From Candidatus Poribacteria bacterium (GTDB lineage: Bacteria; Poribacteria; WGA-4E; PCPOR2b), in contig OZ220744.1 in the NCBI GenBank assembly GCA_965116925.1, positions 2,368,001-2,432,000 on the forward strand: 64,000 nt of DNA, in the 5' to 3' direction. Made by a program: the position numbers and the translations under genes. Numbering within the stretch: the first letter of the stretch is position 1; each line of letters begins with the position of its first letter. Below the pieces are notes generated by a model. It saw nothing but the letters and a program-made list of their open reading frames with translations, was not told where the DNA came from and searched no databases. Of the stretch, positions 5,064-36,274 are shown one piece after another.

Positions 5064-5104
5064 GGTCAACTCCTAATACGTGAAACGTGAAACGTAAAAA
5101 GTAT

Positions 5105-5236
5105 GGCTCATGTTAAGAAAGCGTGCAACAGCAACCGAGTTTTCGTAGGGGTTGGGTCACCCAACCCTTACTACGGGCGGGGAAACCCCGCCCCTACGAT
5201 TTCGTTCATATTTTGCACTTTCTTTTTACATGAACC
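5105..5236. mobile_element. MITE family A with 8-bp target site duplication AAAAGTAT
   Basis: GGCTCATGTTAAGAAA...TTTTTACATGAACC; AAAAGTAT at 5097-5104 and 5237-5244; two GTAG/CTAC hairpins inside. Confidence 0.85.
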
Positions 5237-5304
5237 AAAAGTATATTAACGCAAGTTACCACATGTGCTCCGCTGGGGTTTTGATAGTTCTTCAGTAATC
5301 AATA

Positions 5305-5667
5305 TCAATCTTCTTGTGATTCGATATAGATACGTAACACTGCGTTCATTTTTACTAGGTACTGGTCATCCGTTTTCTCGAACCATTCCAAGACTTCCCT
5401 ATCCACAGGAATCAAGGCATACTTTCCACCATTTGCTAACAACTCACCAATTGTCTGCTCATCCTCCCACAGCATCTCTCCATTGGCATAGATAGCCCGT
5501 TTGAAACGGTTCAATTCTGTCTCGGTTAGTGGTTGAGCATCAGGGTCAGACTGAGCCGTTTTGTATAGGTCTTCGTCCGTCATCTTGTCAACCCGCTCCC
5601 AATCGGTCTCATCAATCTGCCCTTCAATTTCGTCAAGGGTATATGAGGAGATATTTTCGTCTTTCAT
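5305..5667 (-). CDS. BrnA-like antitoxin (type II TA)
   Basis: TDWERVDKMTDED..DPDAQPL and C-terminal D.EVLEWF...MNAVLR; overlaps the toxin gene. Confidence 0.85.
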   Translation of the reverse strand: MKDENISSYTLDEIEGQIDETDWERVDKMTDEDLYKTAQSDPDAQPLTETELNRFKRAIYANGEMLWEDEQTIGELLANGGKYALIPVDREVLEWFEKTDDQYLVKMNAVLRIYIESQED

Positions 5668-5911
5668 CTTTCGTTGCCTTTCTCGCTGAAATGATTCGGA
5701 TGTTCCGGTTACGCAGGGTATAAACTACCTGTAAAATTCTGGATTCTATTCGTCCAATCGCAATCCGTCGTTCCTCACCATAGTCGTTTCGATTATCTTC
5801 CCACTGTAGCACTTGACCGTTGAAAATCGTTGCAGCTTTCCGAAAGCTGATACCATGTTTTTGAATATTTTGTCGGTTTTTTCGTTCGTCCCATTCAAAG
5901 GTGATTGGCAT
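5633..5911 (-). CDS. BrnT family toxin (DUF497)
   Basis: FEWDERKNRQNIQKHGISF...YGEER...IRIISARKA; the upstream ORF extension lies in the tRNA and is discarded. Confidence 0.9.
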   Translation of the reverse strand: MPITFEWDERKNRQNIQKHGISFRKAATIFNGQVLQWEDNRNDYGEERRIAIGRIESRILQVVYTLRNRNIRIISARKATKDERRKYLLIYP

Positions 5912-5928
5912 AATGAGATGAAGCAGTG

Positions 5929-6022
5929 TGGCGGGAGAGGGTGGGAGTCGAACCCACCTACCCACTTGCATGGGCAAGCTGGTTTTGAAGACCAGTAGAG
6001 CCACCGGACCCTATCCCCTCCC
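5929..6022 (-). tRNA. selC: tRNA-Sec (anticodon UCA)
   Basis: GGGAGGGG...CTGGTCTTCAAAACCAG...GTGGGTTCGACTCCCAC-CCTCTCCC-GCCA; 8-bp acceptor stem, 5-bp T stem, long variable arm, encoded CCA; next to selB. Confidence 0.97.
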
Positions 6023-6116
6023 AGATAGAAATTTAGACAAAATTTGTTTAATTCACCTGAATTTTCCCATTTTTCCCGTGAAATTGTAGGTTTTCCCGAT
6101 TGAAAGAAGATGCTTG

Positions 6117-8039
6117 CTACGCTCGACGTTGAGATTTTCGTAGCCGTCGGTGGTTTCCTTCGCGGATTGTCAATCCTTGCCCGTCGCAGTATTCGAGAAA
6201 CGGCACAGCGTATTTCCTGCTGGTTTGTGCGAGCTCTCGGAATTCGGCAACGGTTATTATATCATTTTTCTGGAGGTAATCGGTAAGCGAATTCACAATT
6301 TCTTCAAACATTTGGGTATGAATAAATAGGTCATCTGCAATTCTAATGAATCGTCCGAGGTTCATCAGCGCGTAAAAGGTCTGCTGCACTGACTGCGGCG
6401 GATATTCAGACAGTTGGGCAGTCAATTCAGTCATGGCTGGGGTATTTATGCCAGCGTCGAAGAAGATTTTTTCGATTTTTTCCTTGATATCTTCCTCCTC
6501 TCCTGAGAATTGGATTTGATGCGACGATAGGCGTAGTAGATTCCCATCGGTGATAATCTCTTGCTGGCGAACTAGTTGATCGACAATTTTCTCAAAGCCG
6601 ATTTCGTCGAGTTTGAGTTGGAGACGGAGTTGCGAGGTGTTTTGACCGGGGGCGAGCGGTTGATCTTCATGGAAATTTGCTAGCGCGTTAATCAGACTGG
6701 CTTGTGCTTGTTCTGTCCGATCCATCGCAGAAACGAGTGGCGTGGCTCCCGGCCAACGTACAATTTCTTGATGGTCCTCAAGATCTTTTAGTAACCCTCT
6801 GAAATCTGCATCGGTATAAGGGAGGTAGTAGCGGAGAAATTCTTCTGGCACGCAGAGTTCACGGTTTTGTGCCAATACCAATCTCACAACTTCGGCATCA
6901 TCTGCGTCTTCCCACACTGTGAGGGTTTCCAGTGTCTCTTCCGTGAATCGTTTGTGGCGTGGAGCGAATGGGTTAATCACTCGTCCGCCGCCGACCGTAT
7001 GTTGGGCGGAGAAATCGCGCACGATAAACCGATCTCCCTTGAAGGTCAAAATCGGTTTCTCAAGGCGTAGCTGGAGCTGCGTCGAATCCCCCGGCAGAAC
7101 CCCTTCGTCCATCAGTAGGATTGCGCGGCAAAATGTCTCGCTTGTTCCGAGATAAAACCGTAGGCGCGTCCAGTGTTCAAGCATTCTTGGGAAGGATGAC
7201 AGGAGGTTAAGTGACACGTCAATATTGTCTGTGACCTCTGAAAATCCGCTTGGACAGAGTACATTCCCCCGTTCAATTTGGTCTTTGGTGATGCCTGACA
7301 GATTCAACGCTGTCCGTTGTCCTGACTGTGCGTTTTCCGCTTGTTCATTGTGAACTTGGACGCCGCGGACACGTACCTCTTGTCCTTGGGGTAGCATGAC
7401 GAGCCGTTGTTCGCGTTGGATTGTGCCGCCCATCAGCGTGCCTGTCACTACCCCGCCGAACCCTGTCATCGAAAAGACGCGGTCCACATATAGGCGTGGG
7501 ATTCCATTATGCCGCTCTGCTTGCGCCTCCGTATTGACACACGCCACGATTGTACTCTTGAGTTTATCTAAGCCGTCGCCTGTTATCGCTGAGACATGGA
7601 CGGTGGGTGAGCCTTCGAGGGTTGTTCCGACCAACATCTCTTGGGACATTTCGGCGGATTCCGCCAGCTGGTCGGGCGTCACCAGATCCACCTTCGTCAT
7701 GACGAGGATGCCGGTCGAAATGCCGAGTAGATCGAGGATCTCCAGATGTTCCAGCGTCTGTTCCTGTACACCTTCTTTTGCATCAACGACAAGCAGCACC
7801 ATGTCCATCCCGTACGCGCCTGAGAGCATGTTTCGGATAAACCGCTCATGTCCGGGGACATCAACGATTCCGGCACGCGAACCGTCCGGCAGATCGAAGT
7901 AGGCGAAACCCAACTCGATTGACAGACCGCGTTCTTTCTCCTCTTTGAGCCGATCGGTTTCGATGCCGGTGAGGGCGTGTATCAGAGCGGATTTCCCGTG
8001 GTCAACGTGTCCGGCGGTGCCGATGATGATATGTCGCAT
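6117..8039 (-). CDS. selB: Selenocysteine-specific elongation factor SelB
   Basis: [20 protein letters not shown]-terminal [11 protein letters not shown] winged helix. Confidence 0.97.
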
Positions 8040-8054
8040 GGTATCCTATTCTTT

Positions 8055-9500
8055 CTAAGTCGAATGGTTCAATCCCCCTTGAAGTTGTTCCATCACACCC
8101 TTTGCTGCTTTGACGATCCGCTCCAGTTCTCCTTCAAACACTGTCCGAACATCGAACCGGAGTCGCTCGTCCTGTACGCGGCCAATTATGGGTTTCGGTT
8201 GCGCTCGGAAGTGTGCCGCGAGGGTTTCGGTGGAGATTTGCGGCGCGTGTAGGCTGACAGCTAGACTCGGTAATGTATCGACGGGTAGCGAACCGCTACC
8301 AATCTGTGCGGTGCTTTCTTCAACCGTAACTTGGATTACGTCATCGAAGATTTGCCGGAGATGATTGGCGAGTTTTTCAGCGACCTCACGGATCTCGGCT
8401 ATTGGTCGCGTGTAACGCTGAAGCATTGGTAGTTTTTCGGTCAGTTCCTTTTCGTTAAGGTAGAGCCGTAGGGTGGCTTCGAGTGCAGCGATGGTGAGTT
8501 TTCCGACGCGCAACGCTCGCATCAATGGATTCTTGCGAATTTGCTCGATTGCGTCCAACCGACCCACAATAATCCCCGCCTGCGATCCGCCGAGCAGCTT
8601 GTCACCGCTGAATGTGACGACATCGACACCGGCATCTACCCGCTCGCGTACCACCGGCTCATGGGGCAAACCGTAACGGGTCAGATCAATCAACGAACCG
8701 CTTCCGAGGTCCTCCATCGTTGGTATGCTGTGTTGACGTCCAAGTTCGGTGATTTCTTCCATTGTGGGGGTTGAAGCGAATCCGACGACCTTGTAGTTGC
8801 TCGGATGTACCTTCAGCATCAATGCCGTGTTTTCGTTGATTGCGTTCTCGTAATCTCGAAGATGTGTTCGGTTTGTCGTCCCTACCTCGCGCAAAATGGC
8901 TCCGCTCGCCTCCATCACATCGGGGATGCGGAACGCCCCACCGATTTCAATGAGTTCGCCGCGGGATACGATGACCTCTTTATCGCGTGCTAAGGTATTC
9001 AACGCCAGTAGTACAGCTGCTGCGTTATTGTTCACGATTGTTGAGGCTTCGCATCCCGTCAATCGCTTCAACAGGGGTTCCGTCAGTCGGTCTCGGTGCC
9101 CACGCCCACCGGTATCCAGATCGTACTCCAGATTCACATAGTTAGCAGCGGCTTGCGCGAGGCTTTCAGCTGCCGAAGCACTGAGCAGTGATCTGCCAAG
9201 GTTGGTGTGTGTGATTGTGCCGGTGGCGTTGACAATTGAACGGAGTGCGGGAGCGGTTAGGGTTCCAAGTTCCGCTCGGACGAGTGCTGCATACACCGAT
9301 TCATCGGGAGGTTCCGCGATTTTTTCGTTAAGGATTTGCCCCCGAATTTCCGCAGTGACGGTGCGTAAAGCCTCCGTTATGAGATCTCGCGAATAGTTTT
9401 CCTGCATTCGGAGAAACGGTTCGCGGGAGAGCAACTGTTCAATGGCGGGGATGCGGCGTAAAGCCTCACCCTGTTCTGGGGTTAATTTTTTTGCCGGCAT
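8055..9500 (-). CDS. selA: L-seryl-tRNA(Sec) selenium transferase SelA
   Basis: NATGTITHTNLGRS, VSRGELIEIGG.FRIPD, FSGDKLLGG PLP lysine. Confidence 0.97.
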   Translation of the reverse strand: MPAKKLTPEQGEALRRIPAIEQLLSREPFLRMQENYSRDLITEALRTVTAEIRGQILNEKIAEPPDESVYAALVRAELGTLTAPALRSIVNATGTITHTNLGRSLLSASAAESLAQAAANYVNLEYDLDTGGRGHRDRLTEPLLKRLTGCEASTIVNNNAAAVLLALNTLARDKEVIVSRGELIEIGGAFRIPDVMEASGAILREVGTTNRTHLRDYENAINENTALMLKVHPSNYKVVGFASTPTMEEITELGRQHSIPTMEDLGSGSLIDLTRYGLPHEPVVRERVDAGVDVVTFSGDKLLGGSQAGIIVGRLDAIEQIRKNPLMRALRVGKLTIAALEATLRLYLNEKELTEKLPMLQRYTRPIAEIREVAEKLANHLRQIFDDVIQVTVEESTAQIGSGSLPVDTLPSLAVSLHAPQISTETLAAHFRAQPKPIIGRVQDERLRFDVRTVFEGELERIVKAAKGVMEQLQGGLNHST

Positions 9501-9595
9501 GTTTTTTTAATCCATGTTAAATTCACCGCAGAGGCGCAGAGTGCACAGAGTTTTTCTTGTTTTTCTCCGTGTTTGCTTTGGTAAAATTGTTGTCC

Positions 9596-10591
9596 TCAGA
9601 CATCAAACAGGTTGATAACTTTTACTGGCTTCCCTGTTTCTGCGGACTCCACGCCTGCGACCAAGGCTGAAACGGTTTTTGCGCCTTCGCGGACATCAAT
9701 CAGTGGTTGTGTTCCATTAATCACGCAGTCAACGAAATGGGAAACTGTTTCCTGAATTGCATCTCCATCGTCTGCGACAATCTCTTCTGTGTGACCATCG
9801 GGATGGTGGATACGGTTTTTCCAGATCGTTCCTTCTGTGCCGTAGATAGAAAGAAACCCCTCACCCATCCCGCGACCTTTGCAGCCGCTGGTAACAAGCA
9901 CTTTACCGACGCAGCCATTCTCAAACTGAAAGGTGAAGATGTAACAGTCATCGAGCGGAAAATCTTGTGCGGCGTACCCGTTGGAATAGGCGTGGACCTC
10001 TGTAACGTCGGCACCGACCGTCCACCGGAGTAGATCGAAGGGATGGCAGCCTCCTCCAATCAGGATGTTCTGTGCGGTCTGCGGATGAGATCGCCAAGTT
10101 ACCGGATTGTAGAGGGAACGCATGTCGTGGATGTAGCTGCCTTCAACGAAAAAGGCATGTCCGATCCCTTCGGCGTCGTAGATCCCCTTAATCCGCTTGT
10201 AGATAGGTTCAAATCGCATGAACTGGCTCGCCATAAAGATGAGGCCAGTTTCGTCGACAGTTCGTACCAATTTTTGGCAGCTTTCTATATCGACCCCCAT
10301 CGGTTTCTCGCATAGGACGTGCTTTCCTGCTCGAAGTGCTGCGATAGCGTGTTCAGCGTGAAAGAAATCTGGGGTACAAACCAAGATAATCTGGATGTCT
10401 GCATCGTCCAATAGTTGCTGATAGTCGGTCGTGGCGTACTTCATTTGACCTTGACGACACAAATCTTGCGCTGTTTCTTCGTTATCATCGGCAACGCCGA
10501 TTAATTCGGCATCAGGGCAAGCTGTAAATGCTTTGATATAATCAGATACGTGGACATCGCTGCCAATCAGTCCGACGCCTAGCGTGTTCAT
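9596..10591 (-). CDS. Gfo/Idh/MocA family oxidoreductase
   Basis: AGKHVLCEKPM, GCHPFD. Confidence 0.9.
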   Translation of the reverse strand: MNTLGVGLIGSDVHVSDYIKAFTACPDAELIGVADDNEETAQDLCRQGQMKYATTDYQQLLDDADIQIILVCTPDFFHAEHAIAALRAGKHVLCEKPMGVDIESCQKLVRTVDETGLIFMASQFMRFEPIYKRIKGIYDAEGIGHAFFVEGSYIHDMRSLYNPVTWRSHPQTAQNILIGGGCHPFDLLRWTVGADVTEVHAYSNGYAAQDFPLDDCYIFTFQFENGCVGKVLVTSGCKGRGMGEGFLSIYGTEGTIWKNRIHHPDGHTEEIVADDGDAIQETVSHFVDCVINGTQPLIDVREGAKTVSALVAGVESAETGKPVKVINLFDV

Positions 10592-10603
10592 CTGCGTATC
10601 CTT

Positions 10604-11566
10604 TTAGAATCCGGCACTCTTATCAACCTGGTTCCGCAACGGTAATTCTCCGCGCACGAAGCGTCCGATATTTTCGCCGAAGATTTCGAGGACGTGCTGT
10701 CCCTCAAACTGTGTGCCGCCGGAAACGTGGGGTGCGATCAATACATTTTCCATCTCCCACAGTTCGCTATCTTCGGGCAGCGGTTCCGTTGCGAAGACGT
10801 CCATTGCCGCTGCGGCTAACCGTCCCTCACGCAACGCCGTTGCCATCGCTGTTTCGTCAACGATGCCGCCCCGTGACATAGGCACTAGCATCGCTGTGGG
10901 TTTCATCAGTGCTATCTGTTCCGCACCGATCATGCCGCACGTCTCCGGTGTGCGGGGAACGGCGATTAGCAGATAGTCGGATTGGCGCAACAGGTCGTCG
11001 AGTCGATCAAATCCCCACACGGCACTGACATAGTCCGGCTTGTCGCCCGGATAGAGGTCTACGGCGATGATTCGCATATCGAAGGCACTTCCCCGTTTGG
11101 CGATCTCACGTCCGATGTTTCCAAATCCGACGATCCCCATGGTGCTGTTGGTCAACTCTAGCATCTTGGGGCGAATTTTACCGATTGCCCATTGTTTATG
11201 TTGCTGTGCAAGGATAGAATCTCTGATGCCGCGGGTAAAGGCGAGAATCATGGCGATCGCGCTTTCTGCGACGCACGCGGCGTGGGTGCCGCTAGCACTC
11301 GTGAGCAGGACATCGCTCTCCACCAGTTCGGGGATGGAGACAAAATAGTCTACCCCGGAGCTGGGGGACTGAATCCATTTGATGTTTTTAGCCGCTAGGA
11401 AGAGATCGCGATTGAGCCAGCCGATGTAGACATCGGCGTCGGCGATAAGCCTTGGCGCATCTTCTGGTTTGGCACAGTGCACAAATTCTACGTCAGGATA
11501 TGCTTTCTCGAATTCGGGGATTCCGTCTTCGAGTTTCATGTGGTTGGGTCCGACCAAAATCTTCAT
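10604..11566 (-). CDS. D-2-hydroxyacid dehydrogenase
   Basis: GIVGFGNIG, SRGGIVDE, DVFATEPL, PHVSG. Confidence 0.9.
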   Translation of the reverse strand: MKILVGPNHMKLEDGIPEFEKAYPDVEFVHCAKPEDAPRLIADADVYIGWLNRDLFLAAKNIKWIQSPSSGVDYFVSIPELVESDVLLTSASGTHAACVAESAIAMILAFTRGIRDSILAQQHKQWAIGKIRPKMLELTNSTMGIVGFGNIGREIAKRGSAFDMRIIAVDLYPGDKPDYVSAVWGFDRLDDLLRQSDYLLIAVPRTPETCGMIGAEQIALMKPTAMLVPMSRGGIVDETAMATALREGRLAAAAMDVFATEPLPEDSELWEMENVLIAPHVSGGTQFEGQHVLEIFGENIGRFVRGELPLRNQVDKSAGF

Positions 11567-11949
11567 CTACAGTATGTTCTCCTTCGTATATGTGAGCAAT
11601 TTTCTTTGAAAGCGTGGTTTCTGAGAATCGTAACATGGTATACTTACGGTGAACTCTATAATTACTTGGCTCATCTCAAAAGAAAGTGAAACGTGAAAAT
11701 AATTTGTTCATTGGTTCAGTTGAGCTATGAAGTCCCAATTCTATTGCACGATTCCCAACGCCCGATAAATCGGGCAACTACAATACGCTCGATAAATCGG
11801 GCAACTACAATCTGAAGTGCGTAACTCCTAAGAAGATTTATCCGCCACAAAATTCAATTTATAGTCGCAGGCAGTATACCATATCTATCGTTAATCTGAA
11901 ACCTATTTTTTCCAAAGTGAGTTCCCGTTGCAGTGAAGAGGAGATGAAA

Positions 11950-12780
11950 ATGACTAAAGAATTGAGTCAGCGATTAGAAGAATATAAGGCAAATGGTTTC
12001 ACCGTTTTTGAGGGTTTATTCACCGAGACGCAGATGCGGAGTTGGCGTGAGAGGCATCAGGAGTTAATGGAAGATTATGATGGACAAACTTGGTTCGGTA
12101 ATATGCTCGAATATGCGCCAAAGTTGATGTGGCCCGCGGTAAAGCATCCAACGATACTCGATTTTTTGGAGATAGTGATGGGACCGTTTGTCCAACTCGA
12201 TAACCTTACCCTTGCTGCGTTTCCGAGTGTTCCGAAGAATCAGGCTGAGGGGCGGGCGTCCGGTTGGCATCGAGATCGGTGGGCAAGGGTGCCGCAAAAG
12301 GATATCTATGAACGGCCACTCGCCTCGAATGCGATCAGTTATTTGCAGGATTTAACAGATGAGTACGGTCCGTTGCGGGTGATTGTGGGGTCGCATCGGC
12401 AGCCAATTACGATAGAGATAGAAGATCGGAATAAGCCGCATCCGGACGAGACTTTGCTCTATATGAAGGCGGGTGATGTCGTTGTAACACACAACCATCT
12501 CATTCATTCAGGAACGCCGAACAGTGCCGATGGTTTACGCTATTTCTTCAGCATTTATTACAATACGACGTGGCTCAAGCATACCGATAACCACAGTGGA
12601 CCTCTGACGCAACGGCTTCTTGAGGAAGCGCGGGAGCGGGACGACCACCGACTGATGCGACTTTTGGGGGTTGATACTCAGTTGCAGCCGCGCTGCAATT
12701 CGGGGTTTCTGGCTCCGGATGAGGATCGGTGGGAGGAATGGATTGCTGCGGATCGTGCTGCGATTAAAGCGGAAGAGTAA
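11950..12780 (+). CDS. PhyH family dioxygenase
   Basis: WHRD, GPLRVIVGSH, HSG.PN; GAGGAG RBS before ATG 11950. Confidence 0.85.
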   Translation: MTKELSQRLEEYKANGFTVFEGLFTETQMRSWRERHQELMEDYDGQTWFGNMLEYAPKLMWPAVKHPTILDFLEIVMGPFVQLDNLTLAAFPSVPKNQAEGRASGWHRDRWARVPQKDIYERPLASNAISYLQDLTDEYGPLRVIVGSHRQPITIEIEDRNKPHPDETLLYMKAGDVVVTHNHLIHSGTPNSADGLRYFFSIYYNTTWLKHTDNHSGPLTQRLLEEARERDDHRLMRLLGVDTQLQPRCNSGFLAPDEDRWEEWIAADRAAIKAEE

Positions 12781-13013
12781 TACGTAATGCGTGATACGTA
12801 AGAAAAAGCGGAATTGGCATCTGCGTTCCCTGCGAATAAACCTTGCCGTACTAAATCGTTGGAGTTTTGGGGGTTGGGTTTCACGGTGTCCGTTCAACCC
12901 AACCTACGGTGATGATGGAGTGCAGTAGGTCGATTTTCCAAAATCGACGTTTGGTTGTCGATATGTGAATCTCTACCTACGGATTACTTAGGAGGTTAGG
13001 TTAGCGTTCGGTG

Positions 13014-14063: not shown

Positions 14064-14094
14064 GATATTCTCCTGATGTTGAGTTATGTTTCTA

Positions 14095-14123
14095 ATCTAG
14101 CAGAATCGGGATACTTTGTCAAG
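14095..14123 (-). promoter_or_regulatory. sigma70-type promoter for the Ldh_2 gene
   Basis: TTGACA-17-TAGATT with TGn on the minus strand. Confidence 0.6.
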
Positions 14124-14241
14124 TTGAAATTGGGCGTGAAACGTGAAACGTGATGCGTAAATGACGCAAATTGTATCCACTTTTCGAGCATGGCGCACTG
14201 AACGAAAGATTACAGAAAATTAAGCCATTTTTCGTTTCTAC

Positions 14242-24137: not shown

Positions 24138-24381
24138 GAAATCTGCCTTCGATTGGTACTTTTCTGATTTATATATAACGCAAGTTGCTAGGGCGTGTTG
24201 ACATCTTGAAGCTGCTCATTCGGCAAATGCTGTAATCATCAAGTAATCTGTCAAATGTAGCGCGAACTGTTAGTTTGCAGGTTAGGATCACAATCTAACA
24301 GATCGTGGTACAAAAGTAGATTGTAGGTCGAGTTGCACTTTACTTTATTATATGAACCAGTAGGGGATATAACGAAAAAAA

Positions 24382-27495: not shown

Positions 27496-27560
27496 ATCGA
27501 CGGTATCTTGATCTCGTGTAGCGGCTTATTCAACCGTTTCATTGAGAGAGGTGTGCAGCA

Positions 27561-28169
27561 ATGAGGACGATTGTCATACTATGAGTGGTATTCTTCGTTA
27601 TTATTGGCTGCGATGATGATGAATTTCACAATAGTTTACCTATCATTGACCGTTTAATTCTGCCTGAGGAGGTGAGTCCGGGGGCTAGCGTGGAGTTGCG
27701 AGTGGTTGCGCGCGACAGGGACGGCGATGTGTTGATCTATGTCTGGGAAGTGGACAAGGGCAAACTGGATTCAAGGACGGGACAAATCGTGAAATGGACG
27801 GTCCCTATAAAGCCAAAGCGGTGGGTGGAGTTGGTCTCGGAAGTACGCTCAAGCGTGTGACGGAAGAACTTGGGATTGCAGAGAAGGTTGAAGAGGGCGG
27901 AGAGGTACATTGGTATTGGAAAAAGGGCATTGAGTTTATGGTGCATTAGAGAAATAAGTAAACATTTACCAATAACCTTGACCTTCGCAGAGTGGTCAAA
28001 GTCCCCCTGATAAGGGGGATTTAGGGGGTTGGCTGTGCATTGGGAGTGTCTAAGTAATTCTAAAATTTACCATAGTTACGATGCTGATGCCAAGGTTAGG
28101 AACATTTCGATCTTTAAGCCTGTCGGTGCGGCTCCTGTAGGATTCGACGGAACTTTACTAGCTGAGTAG
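27561..28169 (+). pseudogene. Decayed paralogue of the downstream lipoprotein gene
   Basis: TGA at codon 8 where the paralogue has Trp; internal deletion with frameshift near 27805; MITE insertion; C-terminal YDADAKV..FKPVGAAP matches the paralogue. Confidence 0.88.
27939..28072. mobile_element. MITE family B with TA target duplication
   Basis: TA at 27937-8 and 28073-4; imperfect ~28-bp TIRs; core CCCCCTGATAAGGGGGATTTAGGGGG; removal restores GIEFSYD. Confidence 0.85.
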
Positions 28170-28350
28170 GTGTGGGACTTAAAGCTAGTAGTACAAAAGA
28201 CACAGGTATTTCAAGTAGAATGGTAACTGCGGGGTATTATTGCCTATCAAACCTTACCCTTGAAGGGAGATCCAAGTAGGTTTGACAGCCTCCGATAAAC
28301 CCGCGTTATCTTGGTTTCGTCTAGTCTGACGTTGTAGCTTATTTCATTTT

Positions 28351-28441
28351 GGCTCATGTTAAGAAAGAGTGCAACAGAAATCGTAGGGGCGGGGTCTCCC
28401 CGCCCGCGCTTCGCATTTTGCACTTTCTTTTTATATGAGCC
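28351..28441. mobile_element. MITE family A with 8-bp TSD TTCATTTT
   Basis: GGCTCATG...TATGAGCC; TTCATTTT on both sides; core GTAGGGGCGGGGTCTCCCCGCCC. Confidence 0.85.
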
Positions 28442-28470
28442 TTCATTTTTTATCAATAGGAGCCATACTA

Positions 28471-29550
28471 ATGAGAGTGATTGTTATACTGTGGGTAATA
28501 TTATTTGCCATTACTGGCTGCGGTGATGAAAGTCCCAATGATAGCGACAATAGTCCACCTGTTGTTGATCATTTGATTGTTCCGGAGGAGGTTAACCCGG
28601 GCGACAGTGTCGAATTGCAAGTGGTTGCCCATGACGGGGACGGCGATGCGCTGACCTATGTCTGGAACGTAGAAAAAGGGGAATTGGATTCAGAAACGGG
28701 GCAGATTGTAAAGTGGACGGTCCCTTCAGATCTGAAAGCGGCGACTGTGACTGTTTCCGTGAATGATGGTGTAAACGAATCGGTTACCGAGATAAAAAGG
28801 GTTCCGATTAATCTCCAAAATGCTGCGCCTGTTATTCAGAAGATTGTTGTTACAGAGCGGGTTCATGCAGTCAGCCGTGTGGAACTTCAAGCGATAGTTG
28901 AGGATGCGGACGGTGATACCTTGACTTATAGCTGGGACGTGCAGAAGGGACTGCTCGATTCAGAGGCGATTTCCACACCGACATGGACTGCCCCCATTGC
29001 GATGGGTGTCGTGAATGTACGGTTGACAGTGGATGATGGGATAAACGAGCCGACTACCAAATCGGTATCTGTCCTTGTTATTCACGGGTTGGTTGCGCCG
29101 GGGGCAGAGGCGGCTGGCATCAAATTGGGGGACACATTTGATAGAGTGAAAGCGATCTACGGAAACCCGAGTAGACATCAGGGTGAAAGGTTTGAGTATT
29201 GGGACCCAGACTTCGGGTTATCTGGTATTCTTGATAGCATCAACCGCGTTGATGGCCTATTTTTAACTAGGCCCAATAAAGCCAAAACGACAGGCGGGGT
29301 TGGTATTGGAAGCACACTCAAGCATGTGGAGGGAGAATTGGGGGCGGCTGAGGAGATCGACCAAGTGGAAAGAGTATATTGGTATTGGAAAAAGGGCATT
29401 GCATATGGTTACGATGCTGATAACAAAGTCATAAGCCTTTTCGTGTTTAAGCCGATTGGTGCTGCCCCCGCAGGATTCGATGATGCGCTACCACATGAAC
29501 AGTTGCTAGAACATAGAGCTGCCTTAGACAGATCTTATTCGACGGAGTAG
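28471..29550 (+). CDS. Lipoprotein with two Ig-like (PKD/cadherin-type) repeats
   Basis: Lipobox ITGC; N.PP...D.DGD.LTY.W...G repeat twice. Confidence 0.8.
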   Translation: MRVIVILWVILFAITGCGDESPNDSDNSPPVVDHLIVPEEVNPGDSVELQVVAHDGDGDALTYVWNVEKGELDSETGQIVKWTVPSDLKAATVTVSVNDGVNESVTEIKRVPINLQNAAPVIQKIVVTERVHAVSRVELQAIVEDADGDTLTYSWDVQKGLLDSEAISTPTWTAPIAMGVVNVRLTVDDGINEPTTKSVSVLVIHGLVAPGAEAAGIKLGDTFDRVKAIYGNPSRHQGERFEYWDPDFGLSGILDSINRVDGLFLTRPNKAKTTGGVGIGSTLKHVEGELGAAEEIDQVERVYWYWKKGIAYGYDADNKVISLFVFKPIGAAPAGFDDALPHEQLLEHRAALDRSYSTE

Positions 29551-29791
29551 ATTTCAGAGATGATGAGAGGTTGTTATGTGTAGCCGGAAAGTTCTGTTGA
29601 CCGGCTGCCGCAACAGAAAATATCCGAAGGACAAGATCAGGAAACTGAGTGAGTTGGTGTCGCGCTCCATGCTCCTGTCTGGAACAACCAAAAGAGATTG
29701 GACAAATGGGAGCCGATTATGCTATTATTATGGGCAAATAGTAGATTGTTCCCACAAGATGGGATTCAATCAGGAATGGAGGTGATGTAAG

Positions 29792-30061
29792 TTGCCCACT
29801 AGAAGCTCTGGTATGAAGCATGTCCGCGCGGATCAGAAGAAACGAGATCGGAACCTGCGGCGCAAGTCTGCGTTAAAAACGATGCTTAAACAGACCGAAG
29901 CTGCGATTGCAGATGGAGAGATGGAACAAGCCCAGGAATTGTATCGTCAGGCGGCGAGCCAATTGGATAAAGCTGCGGGGAAAGGGATTATTAAGAAGGG
30001 CATGGCAAATCGGAAGAAATCCCGTCTAGCGCATGACATTAATAAAATAGCGACTGCGTGA
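29792..30061 (+). CDS. rpsT: 30S ribosomal protein S20
   Basis: RN...KS..KT..K, LDKAAGKGII.K..A.RKKSRL; GGAGGT RBS, TTG start. Confidence 0.95.
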   Translation: MPTRSSGMKHVRADQKKRDRNLRRKSALKTMLKQTEAAIADGEMEQAQELYRQAASQLDKAAGKGIIKKGMANRKKSRLAHDINKIATA

Positions 30062-30213
30062 TATGGGAATGAGTTAATGTGTGAAGCGTAAAACGTAAAA
30101 AAATTGAGATTTTTTCCCTTACGTTTTACGCATTATGTTACTACTTTTTGCAGGGGATTTTCCCTTTTATTCTCCTGTTTCCGCCGCTAATGGTGCTAAT
30201 TTGAAAAAGAGTC

Positions 30214-31116
30214 ATGAAGTGGTCCCCCCGTGTAAAGCCTACCAAAATCCGCCGTCTCTACCGCGCCGCTCGGCTGGGTCTCTACGATGACGATCTGTTA
30301 CAGACTGTCGGTTGGGAGCTCTATGGTCGTTGTGCTGACATCGCAGCGGTCGCCGATGTTTACCGAGACGGACTGGTTCCCTGCCCCCAATGCAGCACAA
30401 AGATAAAGCGTCGAATTGATCCACTATTTCGCTCTAGCGACGGTGGTACGCACGAAAACTGGTTTCATTGCCCGCCCTGTACGCAACGACTGCTCTGGCG
30501 CGACTGTCGTGAATCCCTCCGTGAAAGTCCGCGCTGTTTCGATTGTTATGCCCTACTGGAGGGCGCAGAGGAGTTGCAGTGCCGTTGCGGTAGAGTGTGG
30601 GATCGAAAAGCCTACCATCGGTCGGTGAGAACCCGCGTCCGCCTGCCTTGCCCCCACTGCGGCCTGATGATACGCAAACCATCTTTTGAAGTGACCGAGC
30701 GAGTCGTCAGACACCGACGGTCTCGCCCTGAAATAGAATGCCCTAAATGCCAAGCAGTCGCGTTGCATGTGCGCGGCAATATCGAGTGTACCGCCTGCGG
30801 CTACAAACGGCGATGGCGGGATTACCGCAAAAGCCTGAAAAAGCGAGATGAAAGACTTGAGTGTGCAAGCTGTGGGCACAGCTTTAGATGGCAGGCATGG
30901 CGTAAAAGTGCCAGGTCCTTGAGAACCGGTAATCCGAGTCCGGCGCGTGAATTCGTTGAACGATGGCCCAAATGCCGCACCCCAAAAGCCCGCATGATCC
31001 AGATTGATCGCTTGCTGCAAGCACTGCACGGCCGGGGGGCGTTAGCACCCCTGTTCATTGTTGGCAATGCGCGCAATATCCGCCAAATGCTCGATGAGTT
31101 CGCCTCACAGGTTTGA
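30214..31116 (+). CDS. Arg-rich multi zinc-ribbon protein of unknown function
   Basis: CPQC, CPPC, CFDC, CRC, CPHC, CPKC, CTAC, CASC. Confidence 0.75.
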   Translation: MKWSPRVKPTKIRRLYRAARLGLYDDDLLQTVGWELYGRCADIAAVADVYRDGLVPCPQCSTKIKRRIDPLFRSSDGGTHENWFHCPPCTQRLLWRDCRESLRESPRCFDCYALLEGAEELQCRCGRVWDRKAYHRSVRTRVRLPCPHCGLMIRKPSFEVTERVVRHRRSRPEIECPKCQAVALHVRGNIECTACGYKRRWRDYRKSLKKRDERLECASCGHSFRWQAWRKSARSLRTGNPSPAREFVERWPKCRTPKARMIQIDRLLQALHGRGALAPLFIVGNARNIRQMLDEFASQV

Positions 31117-32460
31117 GTTGAGGGAAGTGATAGTTGGTTCCGCCCGGATAAACTCGCCTTCCAACGCCGTCAACTCCATTGGCAAAATCTGATTCACCGC
31201 CGAATCAGGCGCATCCATCAACACCCGCAGATAATTCTCCGTAAACCCCGCTAGATGCCCGTCCGCACCTTCGCGGCTCTCCTCAACCAATACGTTCATC
31301 GTCTTGCCTAACATGCGTTCCCGAAATTCAACACCGAGTCGCTTTCCCAACGCGATCATCGCTTTGCTGCGTTCGGCGGAGACGTGGGGTGGTACGTGAT
31401 CCGCGTAATCCGCTGCGGGGGTGCCACGTCGGGGGGAGTAGCGGAAAACGTGTAACTGACTGAAACCGATTTCTTCGACAAATTGTAGCGAGTCCTCAAA
31501 ATCGGAATCGGTTTCGCCCGGAAAGCCGACCATGATATCGGTAGTGATTCCAACATCCGTGAACGAGATGCGGAGTTTTTCGACAAGGCGCGAAAATTCT
31601 GTTCTTGTATAGCGACGGCGCATTTGACGCAAAGTCTTATCGCTGCCTGCCTGTAACGGTAGATGGAAGTGGGGCATACACTTGGGCAGTGCTGCCATCC
31701 GATCGACCAGATCGGGTGGAAAATTCATCGCCTCAATCGAACTGAAGCGGATGCGCTCCACTCCCTCAATGGGGTGAATGTGTTCTAGAATGTCTGCAAT
31801 AGTTATCTGACGACCGCTATCCAGTCCATAAGCCCCCAGATGGACGCCGGTGATAACGATTTCCTTGTATCCGTTTGCGACGATCTGTTCCGCTTCTTGC
31901 ACGATGTGGGGTAGAGGACGGCTCGTCATGCGTCCACGGACGTAGGGGATAATGCAGTAGGTACAGAAGGCACTGCATCCGTCCTGCACCTTAATGAGCG
32001 CGCGTGTGTGCTTGCCCGCTTCACTCACCGACATACTGAAATTTGCGTGTTCGCGGACGGCGTCATGATGGGCAGGTTCAATCTGCAACAACGGTGAGCG
32101 ATCCTTTTCTTTCCATGATTCGTGAACCAGATCCAGATACTTCTGAAGATCCGCCTTCTCACGATTACCGAAGACGAGTGAGACGCCCGGAATCGCCTCA
32201 ATTGCCTCCCGATCACTTTCAGCGTAACAACCCGTGACGAAGACTTCGGTATCGGGATTTTTCCGAACGGCTCGCCGGATGACTTGACGGGCTTTTTGGT
32301 CTGCGGCATTTGTCACGGTGCAGGTGTTGATGATGCAAACGTCCGCGGGGGTGTTCTCTCCTACGACGGTATATCCGTTACGAAGCATCACCTCCTGCAT
32401 CGCTTGTGTGTCGTATTGGTTCACCTTGCATCCCAAGGTGATGAGTGCCGCTGTTGGCAT
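31105..32460 (-). CDS. mtaB: tRNA threonylcarbamoyladenosine methylthiotransferase MtaB
   Basis: TLGCKVNQYD, INTCTVT, KVQDGCSAFCTYCIIPYVRG. Confidence 0.92.
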   Translation of the reverse strand: MPTAALITLGCKVNQYDTQAMQEVMLRNGYTVVGENTPADVCIINTCTVTNAADQKARQVIRRAVRKNPDTEVFVTGCYAESDREAIEAIPGVSLVFGNREKADLQKYLDLVHESWKEKDRSPLLQIEPAHHDAVREHANFSMSVSEAGKHTRALIKVQDGCSAFCTYCIIPYVRGRMTSRPLPHIVQEAEQIVANGYKEIVITGVHLGAYGLDSGRQITIADILEHIHPIEGVERIRFSSIEAMNFPPDLVDRMAALPKCMPHFHLPLQAGSDKTLRQMRRRYTRTEFSRLVEKLRISFTDVGITTDIMVGFPGETDSDFEDSLQFVEEIGFSQLHVFRYSPRRGTPAADYADHVPPHVSAERSKAMIALGKRLGVEFRERMLGKTMNVLVEESREGADGHLAGFTENYLRVLMDAPDSAVNQILPMELTALEGEFIRAEPTITSLNSNL

Positions 32461-32485
32461 TTTCGTTCTCCTTCGATGGCTTAAT

Positions 32486-33280
32486 TCAACATTCGGAGGG
32501 CTTCAGTGCATTTTTGCCGAAAATCACCGGGAACGTCTCGCCCGTTGTTACATGTTTTGTCGCTGCATCCATATAAGCAGCACTGAATGCGCGTCGCTGT
32601 TTTCCCGTTGGATTTACCCCGGAACGGTGTAGCAGGAGGTTATTCAGCAGGACGACTTCGCCCTCTTCCACCTCCAAATCGATGGCATTTTCCTCCAACT
32701 GATATTTTTCGGCCTCCGCTTCGGTAGCGAAATGTCCCTCATTTATCACGCCGTGTTTGTGGATACCGGGCACGATTTGCATACAACCGTTTTCTACTGT
32801 TGCGTCGTCTAACGCCATCCAGACGGTAATAATTGGGTTGCGGTCTAGTCCCCAGCCTACCCCAACATCTTGATGCCACGGTAGGACAGTGCCTTGATTG
32901 GCAGGTTTATTCATAAACATCGCCCGGTAGATCGACACATCTTCGCCGATGTAACGCCGTGTGATGTCACGCAGGAGTGGGTGCTGCATGTAGGAGAGGA
33001 ACAAGGGGTCTTGCTCAAGGTCCATAATCTTCCGGTATTGAAGTGTCGCGCCCTTGTGTCCCACACTCTCTGGAGGTGCTTCACGGTAGACACCGGTGGT
33101 GCTATCGAGTTGGAACCGCATATTGTCGTAGGGTATAATCCCCAGCATAATGTCATCAATCCGTTGCTGCAACGCAGCTAACTCTTTCTTTGATAGGAGG
33201 TGTCCGAGTCTCACGTACCCCTCCTCCATAAACTGAGTGTGTTCTTGACCCCCAAATTTAACAGGTGACTTTGTTGACAT
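32486..33280 (-). CDS. PhyH family dioxygenase
   Basis: PWHQD, WMALDDATVENGCM, LHRSGVN. Confidence 0.9.
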   Translation of the reverse strand: MSTKSPVKFGGQEHTQFMEEGYVRLGHLLSKKELAALQQRIDDIMLGIIPYDNMRFQLDSTTGVYREAPPESVGHKGATLQYRKIMDLEQDPLFLSYMQHPLLRDITRRYIGEDVSIYRAMFMNKPANQGTVLPWHQDVGVGWGLDRNPIITVWMALDDATVENGCMQIVPGIHKHGVINEGHFATEAEAEKYQLEENAIDLEVEEGEVVLLNNLLLHRSGVNPTGKQRRAFSAAYMDAATKHVTTGETFPVIFGKNALKPSEC

Positions 33281-33316
33281 GGATAGAATCTCCCTTCGGT
33301 TTATGTAAAAAAAAGA

Positions 33317-34126
33317 TCAAAACTCTTGTGCCTCTGCTTGTTTCGGCGGCATCACAATAATTTCGATTCGACGATTTCGTGCTCTTCCTTCGCGGGTTTT
33401 ATTTGTTTCGATTGGACGGTAGTAGGCATAGCCAACCGCTGCCAAACGGGCGGGATCCACACCAGCGCGCGTTTGTAGATAACGGACGGCAGAGATCGCT
33501 CGTTGCGTGGATAGGTCCCAATTGTTTAAGACTGAACCTCTGAATGGGACATTGTCGGTATGACCTTCAACGCGAATCTCTCGATCTGGAAAACGGTTTA
33601 AGAAAGTCTGAGCGATCTTGTCCAAGACACGTTTTCCAGCAGCTTTAACGTCGGCCTTTCCGGAGTCGAAGAGAATTTTATCCATTAGATTGACGGTTAA
33701 TTGTCCTTGGAGCATGGTGATAGTAATTTCTTTCGCTTCGATCTCTTTTTGGAGTTCCTCTCGGAGATCTCGGAATTCTTCCTCTTTCCGTTTTAGTTCC
33801 TCTTGTCTACGTTGCTTCTCTGCAAGAAGTTTTGTCGCCTCCGCTTCCGCTTTTGCTTTGGCTTCATTCAAATTGGTTGCACGTTCTTGTACCTCGTCGA
33901 TTGTGTCCTCTAGGAGGTCAATCTTGTTTTTCTTTGCATCGAGTTCTGCTTGGGTTGTAGTCAATTCATTTTGTAACTGTTCAGACTTTTTTTGGTAGGT
34001 AATCCGACTTTCCTGTTCTGCTTCAAAGTTATTCTTAAATTTGAATATGTAGTAGCTCATAATGGTGACAAGTAGGAGCAAGATAACCCCTGCGATGCCG
34101 CCAATGAGATACAGTTGTCTTTTCAT
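33317..34126 (-). CDS. OmpA/MotB-family protein (TM anchor, coiled coil, peptidoglycan-binding domain)
   Basis: ILFDSG, VEGHTDN, NWDLS..RA, NRRIEI. Confidence 0.88.
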   Translation of the reverse strand: MKRQLYLIGGIAGVILLLLVTIMSYYIFKFKNNFEAEQESRITYQKKSEQLQNELTTTQAELDAKKNKIDLLEDTIDEVQERATNLNEAKAKAEAEATKLLAEKQRRQEELKRKEEEFRDLREELQKEIEAKEITITMLQGQLTVNLMDKILFDSGKADVKAAGKRVLDKIAQTFLNRFPDREIRVEGHTDNVPFRGSVLNNWDLSTQRAISAVRYLQTRAGVDPARLAAVGYAYYRPIETNKTREGRARNRRIEIIVMPPKQAEAQEF

Positions 34127-34304
34127 TCGTCTCTTACTCCCTTATCCTTGCTTTCATTAGCTAATATGTGTTGGTTTCCCAGTTTCGGTTCAACCCAACC
34201 TATAACACTAGGAGCACGTCCTACTAGAATAGACACCAACTTGGATTATAATAGTAGCATAATGTGGGTTAAATCTCAATAAATTTTCTCTGTGCAGAAA
34301 GTGA

Positions 34305-34332
34305 TTGACACTTTGAATAGCTTTGCTATAAT
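34305..34332 (+). promoter_or_regulatory. sigma70-type promoter
   Basis: TTGACA-16-TATAAT with TGn. Confidence 0.65.
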
Positions 34333-34379
34333 TAAGTTTATACGGAATTTTGAATGTTTGTCCCGTCGGAGGTTCACCG

Positions 34380-35183
34380 ATGAGAACACTCCCGTTTTTT
34401 CTCCTGATTTTCGTCCTTTTTTTGAATTGCCAGCCTGCTGAGAAGCAGCCAGAGCGGAAAGAGAAATTGAGTCGTGAGGCGACGCGGCTTAGGTTGGGCA
34501 TGGCACTCACGCCGGAAGATCCGACCGGGTATTTGGAACTCGGCGAAGTCTACCACGAAATGGGAGAGTATGAGAAAGCGATTGAGCAATTTCAGGAGGC
34601 GTTGGCAATTGATGAGGAGAATGCACAAGTGCACAACGCGCTCGGTTTAGTCTATATAGATATGCTACTAACGGGTCCGGCGATTGAAGCATTTCAAAAG
34701 GCGACCGACCTCTCCGCCGATAATCCAGCTTTCCTCAACAATCTGGCTTATGCTTATGACACCGCGGATCAGTTTGGTGAGGCGATCGAAACATATCGCA
34801 AGGCAATTGAGGCTGACTCAACCTTTCAAGATGCATACTTCAATCTGGCGGGTGCTTATCATGCGCGCGATCAATTTGAGGAGGCGATAAGCTATTATCA
34901 GCAAGCCATTGCATTAGATGAAAGTGATCCAGACGCACATTATAACCTCGCACACGCCTATCAAGAGACGGAGCAGTTTGATCACGCCCTCCGTGCATAC
35001 GAAACGGCTCAATCGCTTAACCCGGAGGATACGGAGGTATACTACCACCTCGCGCGGATGTACGAAAAGCGGGGGGACCGCCTCACGATGAAACGCTATT
35101 TGGATATCTTCCTAGAACGCGCGGCGGATTTACCGCAATTTCAAGATGAGATTGAGGTTGCCAAACAGATGTCGGATCAGTAG
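34380..35183 (+). CDS. TPR-repeat protein, probable lipoprotein
   Basis: Hydrophobic leader ending FLNC; ~6 TPR repeats. Confidence 0.88.
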   Translation: MRTLPFFLLIFVLFLNCQPAEKQPERKEKLSREATRLRLGMALTPEDPTGYLELGEVYHEMGEYEKAIEQFQEALAIDEENAQVHNALGLVYIDMLLTGPAIEAFQKATDLSADNPAFLNNLAYAYDTADQFGEAIETYRKAIEADSTFQDAYFNLAGAYHARDQFEEAISYYQQAIALDESDPDAHYNLAHAYQETEQFDHALRAYETAQSLNPEDTEVYYHLARMYEKRGDRLTMKRYLDIFLERAADLPQFQDEIEVAKQMSDQ

Positions 35184-35232
35184 TAGGGCTGTTAGTCGAT
35201 TCATGTGAATGATTACAAGGATTTACAGGTAG

Positions 35233-36153
35233 ATGTTAGACAATCTCTCCAAGCTGATCACCGAGCAAAAAAATCCGAACTCGGTCGATATTGACCTCAA
35301 ATCAACGGAAGATATTTTGCGAGTCTTTCACGAGGAGGATCGGAAAGCCCTTGCGGCTGTTGAAGCTGAATCCGTATCTATCGCGCAAGGAATAACCCTC
35401 ATCACAGAAGCATTTCGTCTAGGTGGACGGCTTTTTTATATCGGTGCGGGGACAAGTGGTAGGCTTGGTGTCCTTGATGCGTCCGAATGCCCACCGACGT
35501 TTAGCACGCCGCCCAGTATGGTACAGGGAATTATCGCCGGTGGGGACCGGGCGTTGCGTCGCTCTGTTGAGGCTGCGGAGGATAAGCCTGACGTTGGGGC
35601 ACAAGCCGTGCGAGATAACGGTGTAGCCGATCAGGATGTAGTGGTTGGCATTGCTGGTAGCGGTCGCACGCCTTATGTGCTTGGCGCGTTGGAGGAAGCG
35701 CATCGAATCGGTGCCAAGACCATTTTCCTGTGCTGCACCCCGCCTGCTGATAACCTGAAAGCATTTGTAAATGTCTTTATCGTGCCGGTGGTTGGACCGG
35801 AGATTATCACTGGTTCAACACGACTCAAAGCTGGGACAGCGACGAAGTTGGTACTAAACACCCTCACCACTGTCTCGATGATTCAGATTGGTAAAGTTTA
35901 CAACAACTTGATGGTTGATATTCAGGCATCAAACGCAAAACTTGTTGATCGCGCGGCGCGTATTATTATGGAGATTGCGGATGTGGATTATGCGATGGCA
36001 CAGACGGCATTGGAATGCGCCGGTGGCAGCGCGAAGGTTGCAATTGTCATGCTTGTGAGAGGAGTCGATCAAGAGGAAGCGGTTGCGTTATTGGAGGAAA
36101 ACGATGGTTTTCTCCGACGGGTGTTGGAAGATATTTCGTACCTCGGGGGATAA
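35233..36153 (+). CDS. murQ: N-acetylmuramic acid 6-phosphate etherase
   Basis: GAGTSGRLGVLDASECPPTF, GPEIITGSTRLKAGTA. Confidence 0.96.
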   Translation: MLDNLSKLITEQKNPNSVDIDLKSTEDILRVFHEEDRKALAAVEAESVSIAQGITLITEAFRLGGRLFYIGAGTSGRLGVLDASECPPTFSTPPSMVQGIIAGGDRALRRSVEAAEDKPDVGAQAVRDNGVADQDVVVGIAGSGRTPYVLGALEEAHRIGAKTIFLCCTPPADNLKAFVNVFIVPVVGPEIITGSTRLKAGTATKLVLNTLTTVSMIQIGKVYNNLMVDIQASNAKLVDRAARIIMEIADVDYAMAQTALECAGGSAKVAIVMLVRGVDQEEAVALLEENDGFLRRVLEDISYLGG

Positions 36154-36160
36154 ACTTTTT

Positions 36161-36251
36161 GGCTCATGTGAAGAAATTGTGCAAAGAAACCGAGTTTTGC
36201 GGAAAAAATTCGGTTTCTCCTAGCGTTTTGCACTTTCTTTTTATATGAACC
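36161..36251. mobile_element. MITE family A with 8-bp TSD AACTTTTT
   Basis: GGCTCATG...TATGAACC; AACTTTTT on both sides; core GAAACCGAGTTTT..AAAATTCGGTTTC. Confidence 0.85.
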
Positions 36252-36274
36252 AACTTTTTATCAGGAGACATAAT

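Follow-up and report, generated by a model that had tools for sequence, protein, structure and literature searches.

The window, the whole stretch of 64,000 nucleotides that was analysed, comes from a sponge-symbiont bacterium of the Poribacteria and contains members of a family of short, non-coding elements with TIRs, target duplications, empty alleles and ends common to an autonomous element in relatives, and these elements are MITEs. Their ends are of the IS1595 type, and the reading that we favour with good confidence is that they were moved in trans, that their interiors were overwritten by host palindromes and that the composites were then copied to new sites. Each component belongs to a known kind of selfish DNA, and the unusual features are the layering and the length constraint, with one kind of selfish DNA likely spreading another in a shell that is mostly about 91–93 bases long.

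Copies in the window and across the genome

The three copies with perfect 8-bp repeats reported by the first-pass annotation were recovered with exact coordinates and exact duplications (Table 1). The minor copies that it listed (2273, ~24330, ~48752, 51766 and 54556) are real, the first being a whole copy and the second and third single ends, and the core without ends that it had placed at ~53890 is a free hairpin. The statement that the interiors differ held in that distinct REP-like interiors occur inside the same ends, but these are not wholly unrelated, as the GTAG hairpins of copies 1 and 2 are surrounded by arm pieces of the GAAACCGAG hairpin (H). The overall similarity of copy 2 to copy 3 reaches only z = 2.2.

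Table 1. Family members and related features in the window.
Feature	Position	Strand	Details
MITE copy 1, 132 bp	5105–5236	+	Duplication AAAAGTAT, exact
Copy 1, target duplication, 8 bp	5097–5104 (left) and 5237–5244 (right)	+	
Copy 1, right-end-type TIR	5105–5128		
Copy 1, hairpin-arm remnant	5129–5143		
Copy 1, inverted GTAG-REP pair	5145–5197		
Copy 1, left-end-type TIR	5213–5236		
MITE copy 2, 91 bp	28351–28441	+	One GTAG hairpin (28383–28405) fused to hairpin-arm remnant
Copy 2, duplication	28343–28350 and 28442–28449		TTCATTTT, exact
MITE copy 3, 91 bp	36161–36251	+	Carries GAAACCGAG hairpin H at 36185–36218
Copy 3, duplication	36153–36160 and 36252–36259		AACTTTTT, exact
Whole MITE, 115 bp	2273–2387	-	GTAGGCGGGGCATC REP type; worn duplication; class n = 17
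Lone left-end-type TIR	11668–11691	+	Followed by heptamer repeats; absent from the first-pass list
Lone decayed left-end-type TIR	24333–24358	+	Placed by eye from sequence
Lone right-end-type TIR	48751–48774	+	Followed by H arm and another hairpin
Decayed H-type MITE, 85 bp	51766–51850	+	Old insertion common to G124, G143 and G047, interior different there
Free H-type hairpin	53889–53921	.	Without IS ends
Decayed copy	54556 (approximate)–54638	-	REP hairpin and one good TIR (ending 54638)

Each of the three window copies is matched by empty sites in sister genomes, as are further sites, so that the empty alleles looked for in related genomes are present for all three. The target of copy 1, whose class comprises 50 copies in this genome (median nearest-neighbour identity, 0.985), is in single copy in G085, G098, G148, G090 and G128, and the same element occupies the site in G124. 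The site of copy 2, a type with five copies in the genome, all with exact duplications, is empty in G134, G084, G050, G085 and G047, and in G015 the target holds a 115-bp element with another REP. Copy 3, positioned immediately upstream of the start of the next gene, has the commonest interior (H; n = 76), and its site is empty in 16 of the 18 aligned relatives and occupied in G124 and G098 by other family elements in the opposite orientation. Public-run contigs over 27800–37200, broken at repeats, provided no clean empty allele, and none was present at 51766 among the three relatives that aligned.

Genome-wide, the ends form imperfect inverted repeats of 24 bp, with 337 matches (≤6 mismatches) on the plus strand and 333 on the minus strand, whereas a single strand of the reversed genome gave 11. 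Paired ends <450 bp apart defined 211 elements with modal lengths of 91/92 and 132 bp. The expectation of 8-bp duplications throughout the genome was borne out, as 127 of the 211 carried one (≤1 mismatch) compared to 0–1 of 211 for shifted controls and a mean of 1.8 (maximum, 6) for swapped flanks; across duplication lengths of 2 to 12 there was no peak other than 8. A logo of the 127 sites describes an AT-rich W4-N4-W4 target of 12 bp, of which the central 8 bp are duplicated.

An IS1595-family partner

The same ends occur on an IS1595-family element of ~985 bp in 9 of the 19 genomes of the genus, in agreement with the proposal that the ends are IS-derived. In G124, G101 and G085 the IS has the TIRs of the MITEs, in the first two together with exact 8-bp duplications, and the right-end-type TIR of copy 1 is identical to the IS right end in G124. 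Among 30 IS loci across the phylum, both ends were ≤6 mismatches from the MITE ends in 21 and exact duplications were found in seven; an exact 8-bp duplication is present at L047, L055, L057, L059 and L061. The commonest MITE left end, AAAAAGAAAG, had no exact match among the IS left ends found. The IS1595 elements with the highest scores in the phylum have different ends. The ends had initially been described as typical of ISL3-like (also IS256- or IS1-type) elements, an origin that was abandoned because the window genome has no match to PF01610, PF00872 or PF03400 and the ends flank an IS1595 gene in relatives.

The transposase domain of the partner, DDE_Tnp_IS1595 (PF12762), scored 58 bits against a cut-off of 27, and the Zn_ribbon_IS1595 domain (PF12760) fell below its cut-off (E = 4e-4; 20.7 bits against 25.4), with two CxxC pairs visible in the alignment. 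In G124, G101 and G085 the transposase is divided between two ORFs that overlap at a G5-A7-G run, an arrangement that likely reflects a -1 frameshift. A single-ORF relative of 319 aa in G034 is 60–61% identical to the two split ORFs and matched NF033547 at 97.2 bits (cut-off, 75), compared to 63.3 bits for the second ORF of the split transposase alone. The partner may belong to the ISH4 subgroup of IS1595.

A transposase of this family likely moves the MITEs in trans. The search for an autonomous element with the same TIRs succeeded in relatives and not in the window genome (99% complete), where no IS1595 transposase was found by domain search or, at E < 0.01, by tblastn with the partner ORFs. 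Since the transposase was not found there, the bursts in the window genome are likely relics of a time when the IS was present. A metagenome scan recovered 23 stretches with these ends, none with a transposase between them. No clear similarity was detected between the MITE interiors and the interior of the IS (a single p = 0.04 among 18 tests).

Interiors and their proposed exchange

The interiors are mosaics of small palindromes. The cargo units Ra, Rb and Rc each have a GTAG tag and a short palindrome and occur in many extragenic copies and in inverted pairs, and free copies account for 90 of 200, 161 of 295 and 111 of 158, respectively, and for 50 of 211 copies of H (reversed controls, 0; the H count is from a pattern with a control of 0 that replaced a first, too loose one with a control of 164). 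Hairpin H has neither a GTAG nor a CGTC tag in its sequence. It flanks a RAYT-like gene (71.5 bits against the cut-off of 80 for NF047646) in every one of the 12 genomes that have this gene, and by pattern it does so on both sides in 10, the copies being mostly kin at one locus; the claim that the GAAACCGAG core is unrelated to the GTAG/REP cores was withdrawn on this ground. The RAYT/Y1 genes sought in the window genome number five, of which L002 is a RAYT (121.5 against 80 bits) flanked by GTAG repeats other than Ra, Rb and Rc, and L001 is IS200-like with Ra/Rb-like pairs upstream, but no RAYT flanked by exact Ra, Rb or Rc was found in that genome.

At least four GTAG hairpin types in the window genome join the H arm at a single point, between AGAAAC(C/T) and GTAG, and this arm is present on 16 of 39 GTAG hairpins immediately following a right end, as selected by a loose pattern that lets in false matches, compared to 55 of 2497 elsewhere. 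In G101 the upstream H of the RAYT-like gene is replaced by an H-REP chimera that also forms the interior of the 112-bp MITE and here has no IS ends. The idea that the ends capture or exchange cargo gave way on this evidence, since a hairpin-to-REP change outside any IS ends points to an exchange that acts at the hairpin, with the transposase re-amplifying the product. The cargo likely changes at the hairpin and not at the ends, and the IS ends likely move any interior.

The combinations of ends and cores, once tabulated as the first-pass annotation had proposed, cross between end subtypes and cargo classes, with ATTT ends on H (22) and on a REP pair (31), and AAAG ends on the REP pair (16), two other REP classes (5 and 5) and H (1). 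Near-identical composites also form species-specific bursts, of 132 bp in the window genome and of 148 and 172 bp in G085, where the 148-bp form accounts for 17 of 51 matches and the 172-bp form for 14, and duplications were present at 25 of 30 fetched loci.

We consider it rather unlikely that no exchange took place, each class being a separate lineage founded once by nested insertion in an ancestral 91-bp MITE, and any difference in cargo at a site reflecting independent hot-spot insertions. Targets are limited (about 27,000 non-coding motif matches), most classes retain H arm remnants, and the sites at 36161 and 28351 have elements of another subtype or orientation in a few relatives and are empty in most, all consistent with separate lineages. 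In-place interior change and independent insertion were compared in a sample of 200 kb of eight genomes. However, the orthologous insertion at 51766 has the same, asymmetric flanks in four species and different interiors, and one REP pair stands behind two end subtypes. The H loops are inverted in near-equal numbers (14:14, 9:6 and 8:5), and a second, CTAG-ended MITE family contains the interior of the 134-bp class together with a shortened IS end. Active capture of resident REPs as a composite transposon, with one IS end landing on each side of a hairpin, is less probable still: some elements of 151–213 bp have a decayed internal end, then extra cargo and a second end, as read-through to a neighbouring end would leave, but the common classes have no internal ends, the REPs join the H arm at one point and the same chimera exists without IS ends.

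Under the favoured account of in-place overwriting and movement in trans, the transposase would recognise only the ~24-bp ends, so any interior would be carried along. Interiors would be altered where they stand, chiefly at hairpin H, as GTAG-REPs enter its arm at the CG, other small repeats insert, loops invert, segments are deleted and repeats with a REP in common recombine; the REPs could enter either by a RAYT-type enzyme or by recombination. Once the interior had changed, copies of some composites likely reached new sites. If transposition works best at ~91–93 bp, or if this is the smallest size that still moves well, unrelated interiors would come back to that length, and the longer composites (115, 132, 148 and 172 bp) would still be mobile. 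More tentatively, and on balance doubtfully, HUH (RAYT-type) enzymes may write REPs into one site in H and the IS1595 transposase may disperse the products and select the ~91–93-bp shell. Were such a two-enzyme relay true, a DDE-transposase MITE would be the vehicle on which REPs spread, and the geometry of the IS1595 transpososome would be readable from the lengths that occur in nature.

Known systems and element length

The route by which REPs reach new sites is still debated, and REP hairpins within elements that have fresh duplications and empty sister alleles provide a concrete case of another one, in which the REP hitch-hikes on a MITE. The IS1595 family is little studied, and the present set amounts to a test kit for it, with an intact IS, natural substrates by the hundred, a clear target motif of 12 bp and a sharply preferred length common to unrelated interiors. 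No description of such layering was found in the open-licence literature.

The family is characterised by an 8-bp target duplication, TIRs starting GG and an N-terminal zinc ribbon with DDE_Tnp_IS1595, as described in PMC8101967. The partner IS shares the duplication, the GG-starting TIRs and the DDE domain, with the zinc ribbon below cut-off, but differs in its split transposase in the genus of the window, and the MITE interiors differ in being host palindromes. GTAG-REPs have a GTAG tag, a GC-rich hairpin, inverted pairs, an extragenic location and many free copies, and in Anabaena GTAG dimers are inserted in longer palindromes, as outlined by Di Nocera et al. (2013, PMC3733652). The same REP, REPIN and REPtron traits are seen here; in contrast, many REPs here are enclosed by DDE-transposase ends that have fresh 8-bp duplications, the window genome yielded no RAYT with these exact REPs, and H is untagged. 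BOX/RUP/SPRITE clusters, described as nested bacterial repeats (PMC10969869), and the BrickBuilt MITE, described with a minisatellite inside (PMC4596501), are alike in having small repeats within or inserted into MITEs, whereas here one end pair bears many unrelated interiors and composites were amplified as families, species by species.

Interiors that cannot be aligned recur at 89–94 bp, among them interiors of another family that have no hairpin, and this recurrence is suggestive of an optimal length at about 91–93 bp. In four genomes of that other family, a pattern that permitted 48–348 bp returned 62 elements with related ends and without GTAG or H cargo, all of 83–94 bp and 53 of them of 93 bp; other interiors of 90–91 bp were found in G061 and G140. 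Several equal-length interiors fold weakly and differ in sequence. The other-family interiors are related among themselves (z = 2–7), and the 115-bp class matches one of these at 17 of 20 bases (p = 0.002 before correction for 70 comparisons). The 91–93-bp mode could alternatively represent shared descent from one old MITE. Retention as functional RNA or regulatory modules (terminators or mRNA stabilisers), the constant length reflecting RNA function, is scarcely credible. In its favour, 204 of the 211 elements are intergenic, and of the 154 in same-direction spacers 79 lie ≤60 bp from the next start codon; against it, most relatives have empty sites, convergent spacers are not enriched (22/204 elements compared to 409/3883 spacers), and same-length interiors are unlike in sequence, several of them weakly folding.

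Sharp preferred or minimal lengths in IS1, IS50 and Paramecium IESs are ascribed to transpososome looping in the discussion of PMC3464196; the length here is 91–93 bp compared to 64–70 bp there, and no helical periodicity above that length could be replicated. For 26 interior clusters ≤200 bp in the window genome a 10.5-bp lattice of lengths gave a Rayleigh p of about 0.001, a period of 21 being equally good. Helical phasing failed on 25 relative-only clusters (p = 0.76). It failed again on eight multi-copy lengths chosen by hand from the sister genomes, with p = 0.94 for a period of 10.5 and p = 0.09 for 10.8, the best of the directed tests, and the 148- and 172-bp bursts do not lie on the lattice. 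Pooling of twelve multi-copy clusters yielded p = 0.02, but four of these are near 91 bp and distinct sites are not assured for all copies; a weak helical effect may act below about 140 bp.

Ends, target and partner element

This family is an IS1595-derived MITE whose interior has been repeatedly overwritten by host palindromes, and composites of MITE and palindromes have probably spread in species-specific bursts. The component parts are known kinds of element, and an arrangement with a repeatedly overwritten MITE interior is absent from the available portions of reviews that mention nested repeats. New here are the hairpin H as both a repeat beside a RAYT-like gene and a probable landing site, probable change in place at an orthologous site, and a conserved shell length.

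The three elements described in the window by the first-pass annotation lie where it had placed them, and exact direct repeats of 8 bp flank every one. The window's genome (one contig, 6.47 Mb) was scanned with the six window ends (≤6 mismatches), yielding 337 ends on one strand and 333 on the other; a control scan of a single strand of the reversed genome gave 11. Pairing gave 216 elements (211 <450 bp) and left 238 unpaired ends, a few of which are chance matches within another repeat. An 8-bp duplication (≤1 mismatch) was found in 127 of the 211 elements (controls: shifted, 0–1; swapped flanks, ≤6). At these 127 sites the target was W4-N4-W4, of which the middle 8 bp are duplicated, and 88 matched a strict form of this motif. 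Almost all copies were intergenic (204 of 211), with no excess of these in spacers of convergent genes.

An autonomous element sharing these ends, which the first-pass annotation had proposed to look for, was found in relatives but not in the window's genome, where ISL3, IS1595, IS1 and IS256 transposase profiles and the ORFs of the relatives' element had no matches. In three relatives (G124, G101 and G085), MITE-type ends flank an element of ~985 bp, with exact 8-bp duplications at five loci in G124 and G101; window copy 1 has a left end identical to the right end of the IS in G124. One ORF encodes a putative zinc-ribbon/HTH and the other a DDE_Tnp_IS1595 domain, overlapping at a G5-A7-G run, and the pair is probably joined by a -1 frameshift, since a relative with one 319-aa ORF, which scores above the NCBIfam IS1595 cut-off, aligns with both at 60–61%. 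These features fit the IS1595 family definition in the available text of PMC8101967. Across the phylum, 35 of 151 genomes contain close homologues, as do 9 of the 19 genomes of the genus, and both IS ends are ≤6 mismatches from MITE ends at 21 of 30 fetched loci. A ~181-bp internal-deletion derivative in a relative retains the transposase gene's 3′ end; such deletion is a conventional route to a MITE. Within the IS1595 transposase gene at one G085 locus (L062) sits a small 26-bp palindromic repeat of a type that has 81 copies in the window's genome and is also present in MITE interiors.

Locations of MITE copies and associated features (G000 is the window's own genome)
Feature	Location	Remark
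MITE copy 1	window 5105–5236	
MITE copy 2	window 28351–28441	
MITE copy 3	window 36161–36251	
Insertion common to four species	window 51766	
Spot variable among species	window ~5250–5260	
Short ORFs	window 5305–6004	
Another small repeat	window 27996–28077	very high copy number, judged by aligned-contig depth
Proteins with 22-aa repeats	window 54701–56386, 57526–59721	66-nt unit
Genes with ~55-aa repeats	window 42165–47304	
CTAG-ended MITE, examples	G000:C1 near 253098, 788747	
~901-bp IS within MITE ends	G000:C1:5709940–5710917, 5899568–5900545	separate 8-bp duplication each
RAYT-like gene	L004:1294–1860 (G000:C1:5954903–5955466)	directly downstream of cas1, upstream of cas4
Split IS200-like gene	L001:1185–1839	
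IS internal-deletion derivative	G119:C27:9698–9876	

Interchangeable interiors and shell length

The 211 elements carried hairpin H alone (n = 76), an inverted REP pair (~132-bp class, n = 50), heptamer repeats (n = 21), a 115/118-bp REP class (n = 17), a reversed REP class (n = 8), a 134-bp-class pair (n = 5), a single REP (91-bp class, n = 5) or other interiors (n = 29). All cargo modules were also found away from IS ends, and one relative (G020) has H matches with paired MITE ends absent by exact pattern. At least four GTAG hairpin types are joined to H at one identical arm point, on either arm; the window's genome has 18 arm-REP-arm matches, at least one outside IS ends and one false. GTAG dimers within longer palindromes were noted, without follow-up, in Anabaena (Di Nocera et al., PMC3733652, section 7).

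The earlier remark that two different cores share a length of 91 bp proved general, with unlike interiors of similar length in other genomes. A multi-copy 91-bp interior in G061 has no recognised hairpin, forms of 90–91 bp in G140 bear other hairpins, and several interiors of 89–94-bp elements are mutually non-alignable. Four genomes belonging to another family contain 62 elements with related ends (83–94 bp, 53 of them 93 bp) and interiors without H or GTAG hairpins; 9 of 15 fetched had exact duplications. Only 2 of 134 duplication-anchored elements in the window's genome were <89 bp. Because a looping constraint is known to cause such limits in short transposons (available text of PMC3464196), the MITE would appear to have a minimal or favoured length; part of the common length may be explained by descent of all these elements from a single old MITE of 91–93 bp. 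A helical periodicity above 91–93 bp, seen in the window's genome, failed in relatives.

Orthologous sites, chimeras and bursts

Empty sites were found in relatives at all three window loci, as the first-pass annotation had anticipated, and in 200-kb stretches from eight relatives. The 36161 site was empty in 16 of 18 aligned same-genus genomes, with other family members in opposite orientation at the target in G124 and G098. At 5105, the 132-bp element was also present in G124 and the site was empty in at least five genomes, with the downstream gene missing in several others. The 28351 site was empty in five clear orthologues (six further matches may represent a neighbouring paralogue), and in G015 a 115-bp family member bearing another REP occupied the target. 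Near copy 1, many relatives (L087, L097–L103) show tRNA-like sequence directly after mutL, where the window's genome has short ORFs.

The insertion at 51766 has matching asymmetric flanks in four species and, as these are shared, probably a single origin. Its interior is H in the window, loop-reversed H in G124 and, in G047, an H arm plus GTAG REP; in G143 the interior has been deleted. Both loop orientations of H were found in similar counts, and end subtypes combine across cargo classes. A second MITE family has CTAG ends and REP type Rb as cargo (51 pattern matches in G000:C1); among the matches listed, some are chimeric, with a 134-bp-class interior and a shortened IS end, which points to recombination between repeats via the shared REP. 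Two H-type copies each have the same ~901-bp IS inserted in their right end, at the same position; the MITE end looks like a target of this IS.

Median nearest-neighbour identity in the window's genome was 0.985 for the 132-bp class versus 0.902 for the H class. Relatives carry other forms: among 51 matches, G085 has 17 copies of 148 bp and 14 of 172 bp with a poly-C/poly-G hairpin, G143 has 178-bp copies, and G084 has 133-bp copies. Across these forms, duplications were retained at 25 of 30 fetched loci.

H and the RAYT-like gene

A RAYT-like gene flanked by H directly follows cas1 and precedes the next cas gene; a short intervening ORF is a putative cas2 by appearance. H was found ≤400 bp from the gene in 12 of 12 genomes possessing it (both sides in 10), these genomes being kin and not 12 independent events. 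Its product falls short of the RAYT cut-off. In G101, the upstream H is replaced by the same arm-joined H-REP chimera that is seen in MITE interiors. At a separate locus, a ~119-bp TA-ended element interrupts an IS200-like gene, upstream of which lie three tandem units of ~239 bp, each with a REP pair.
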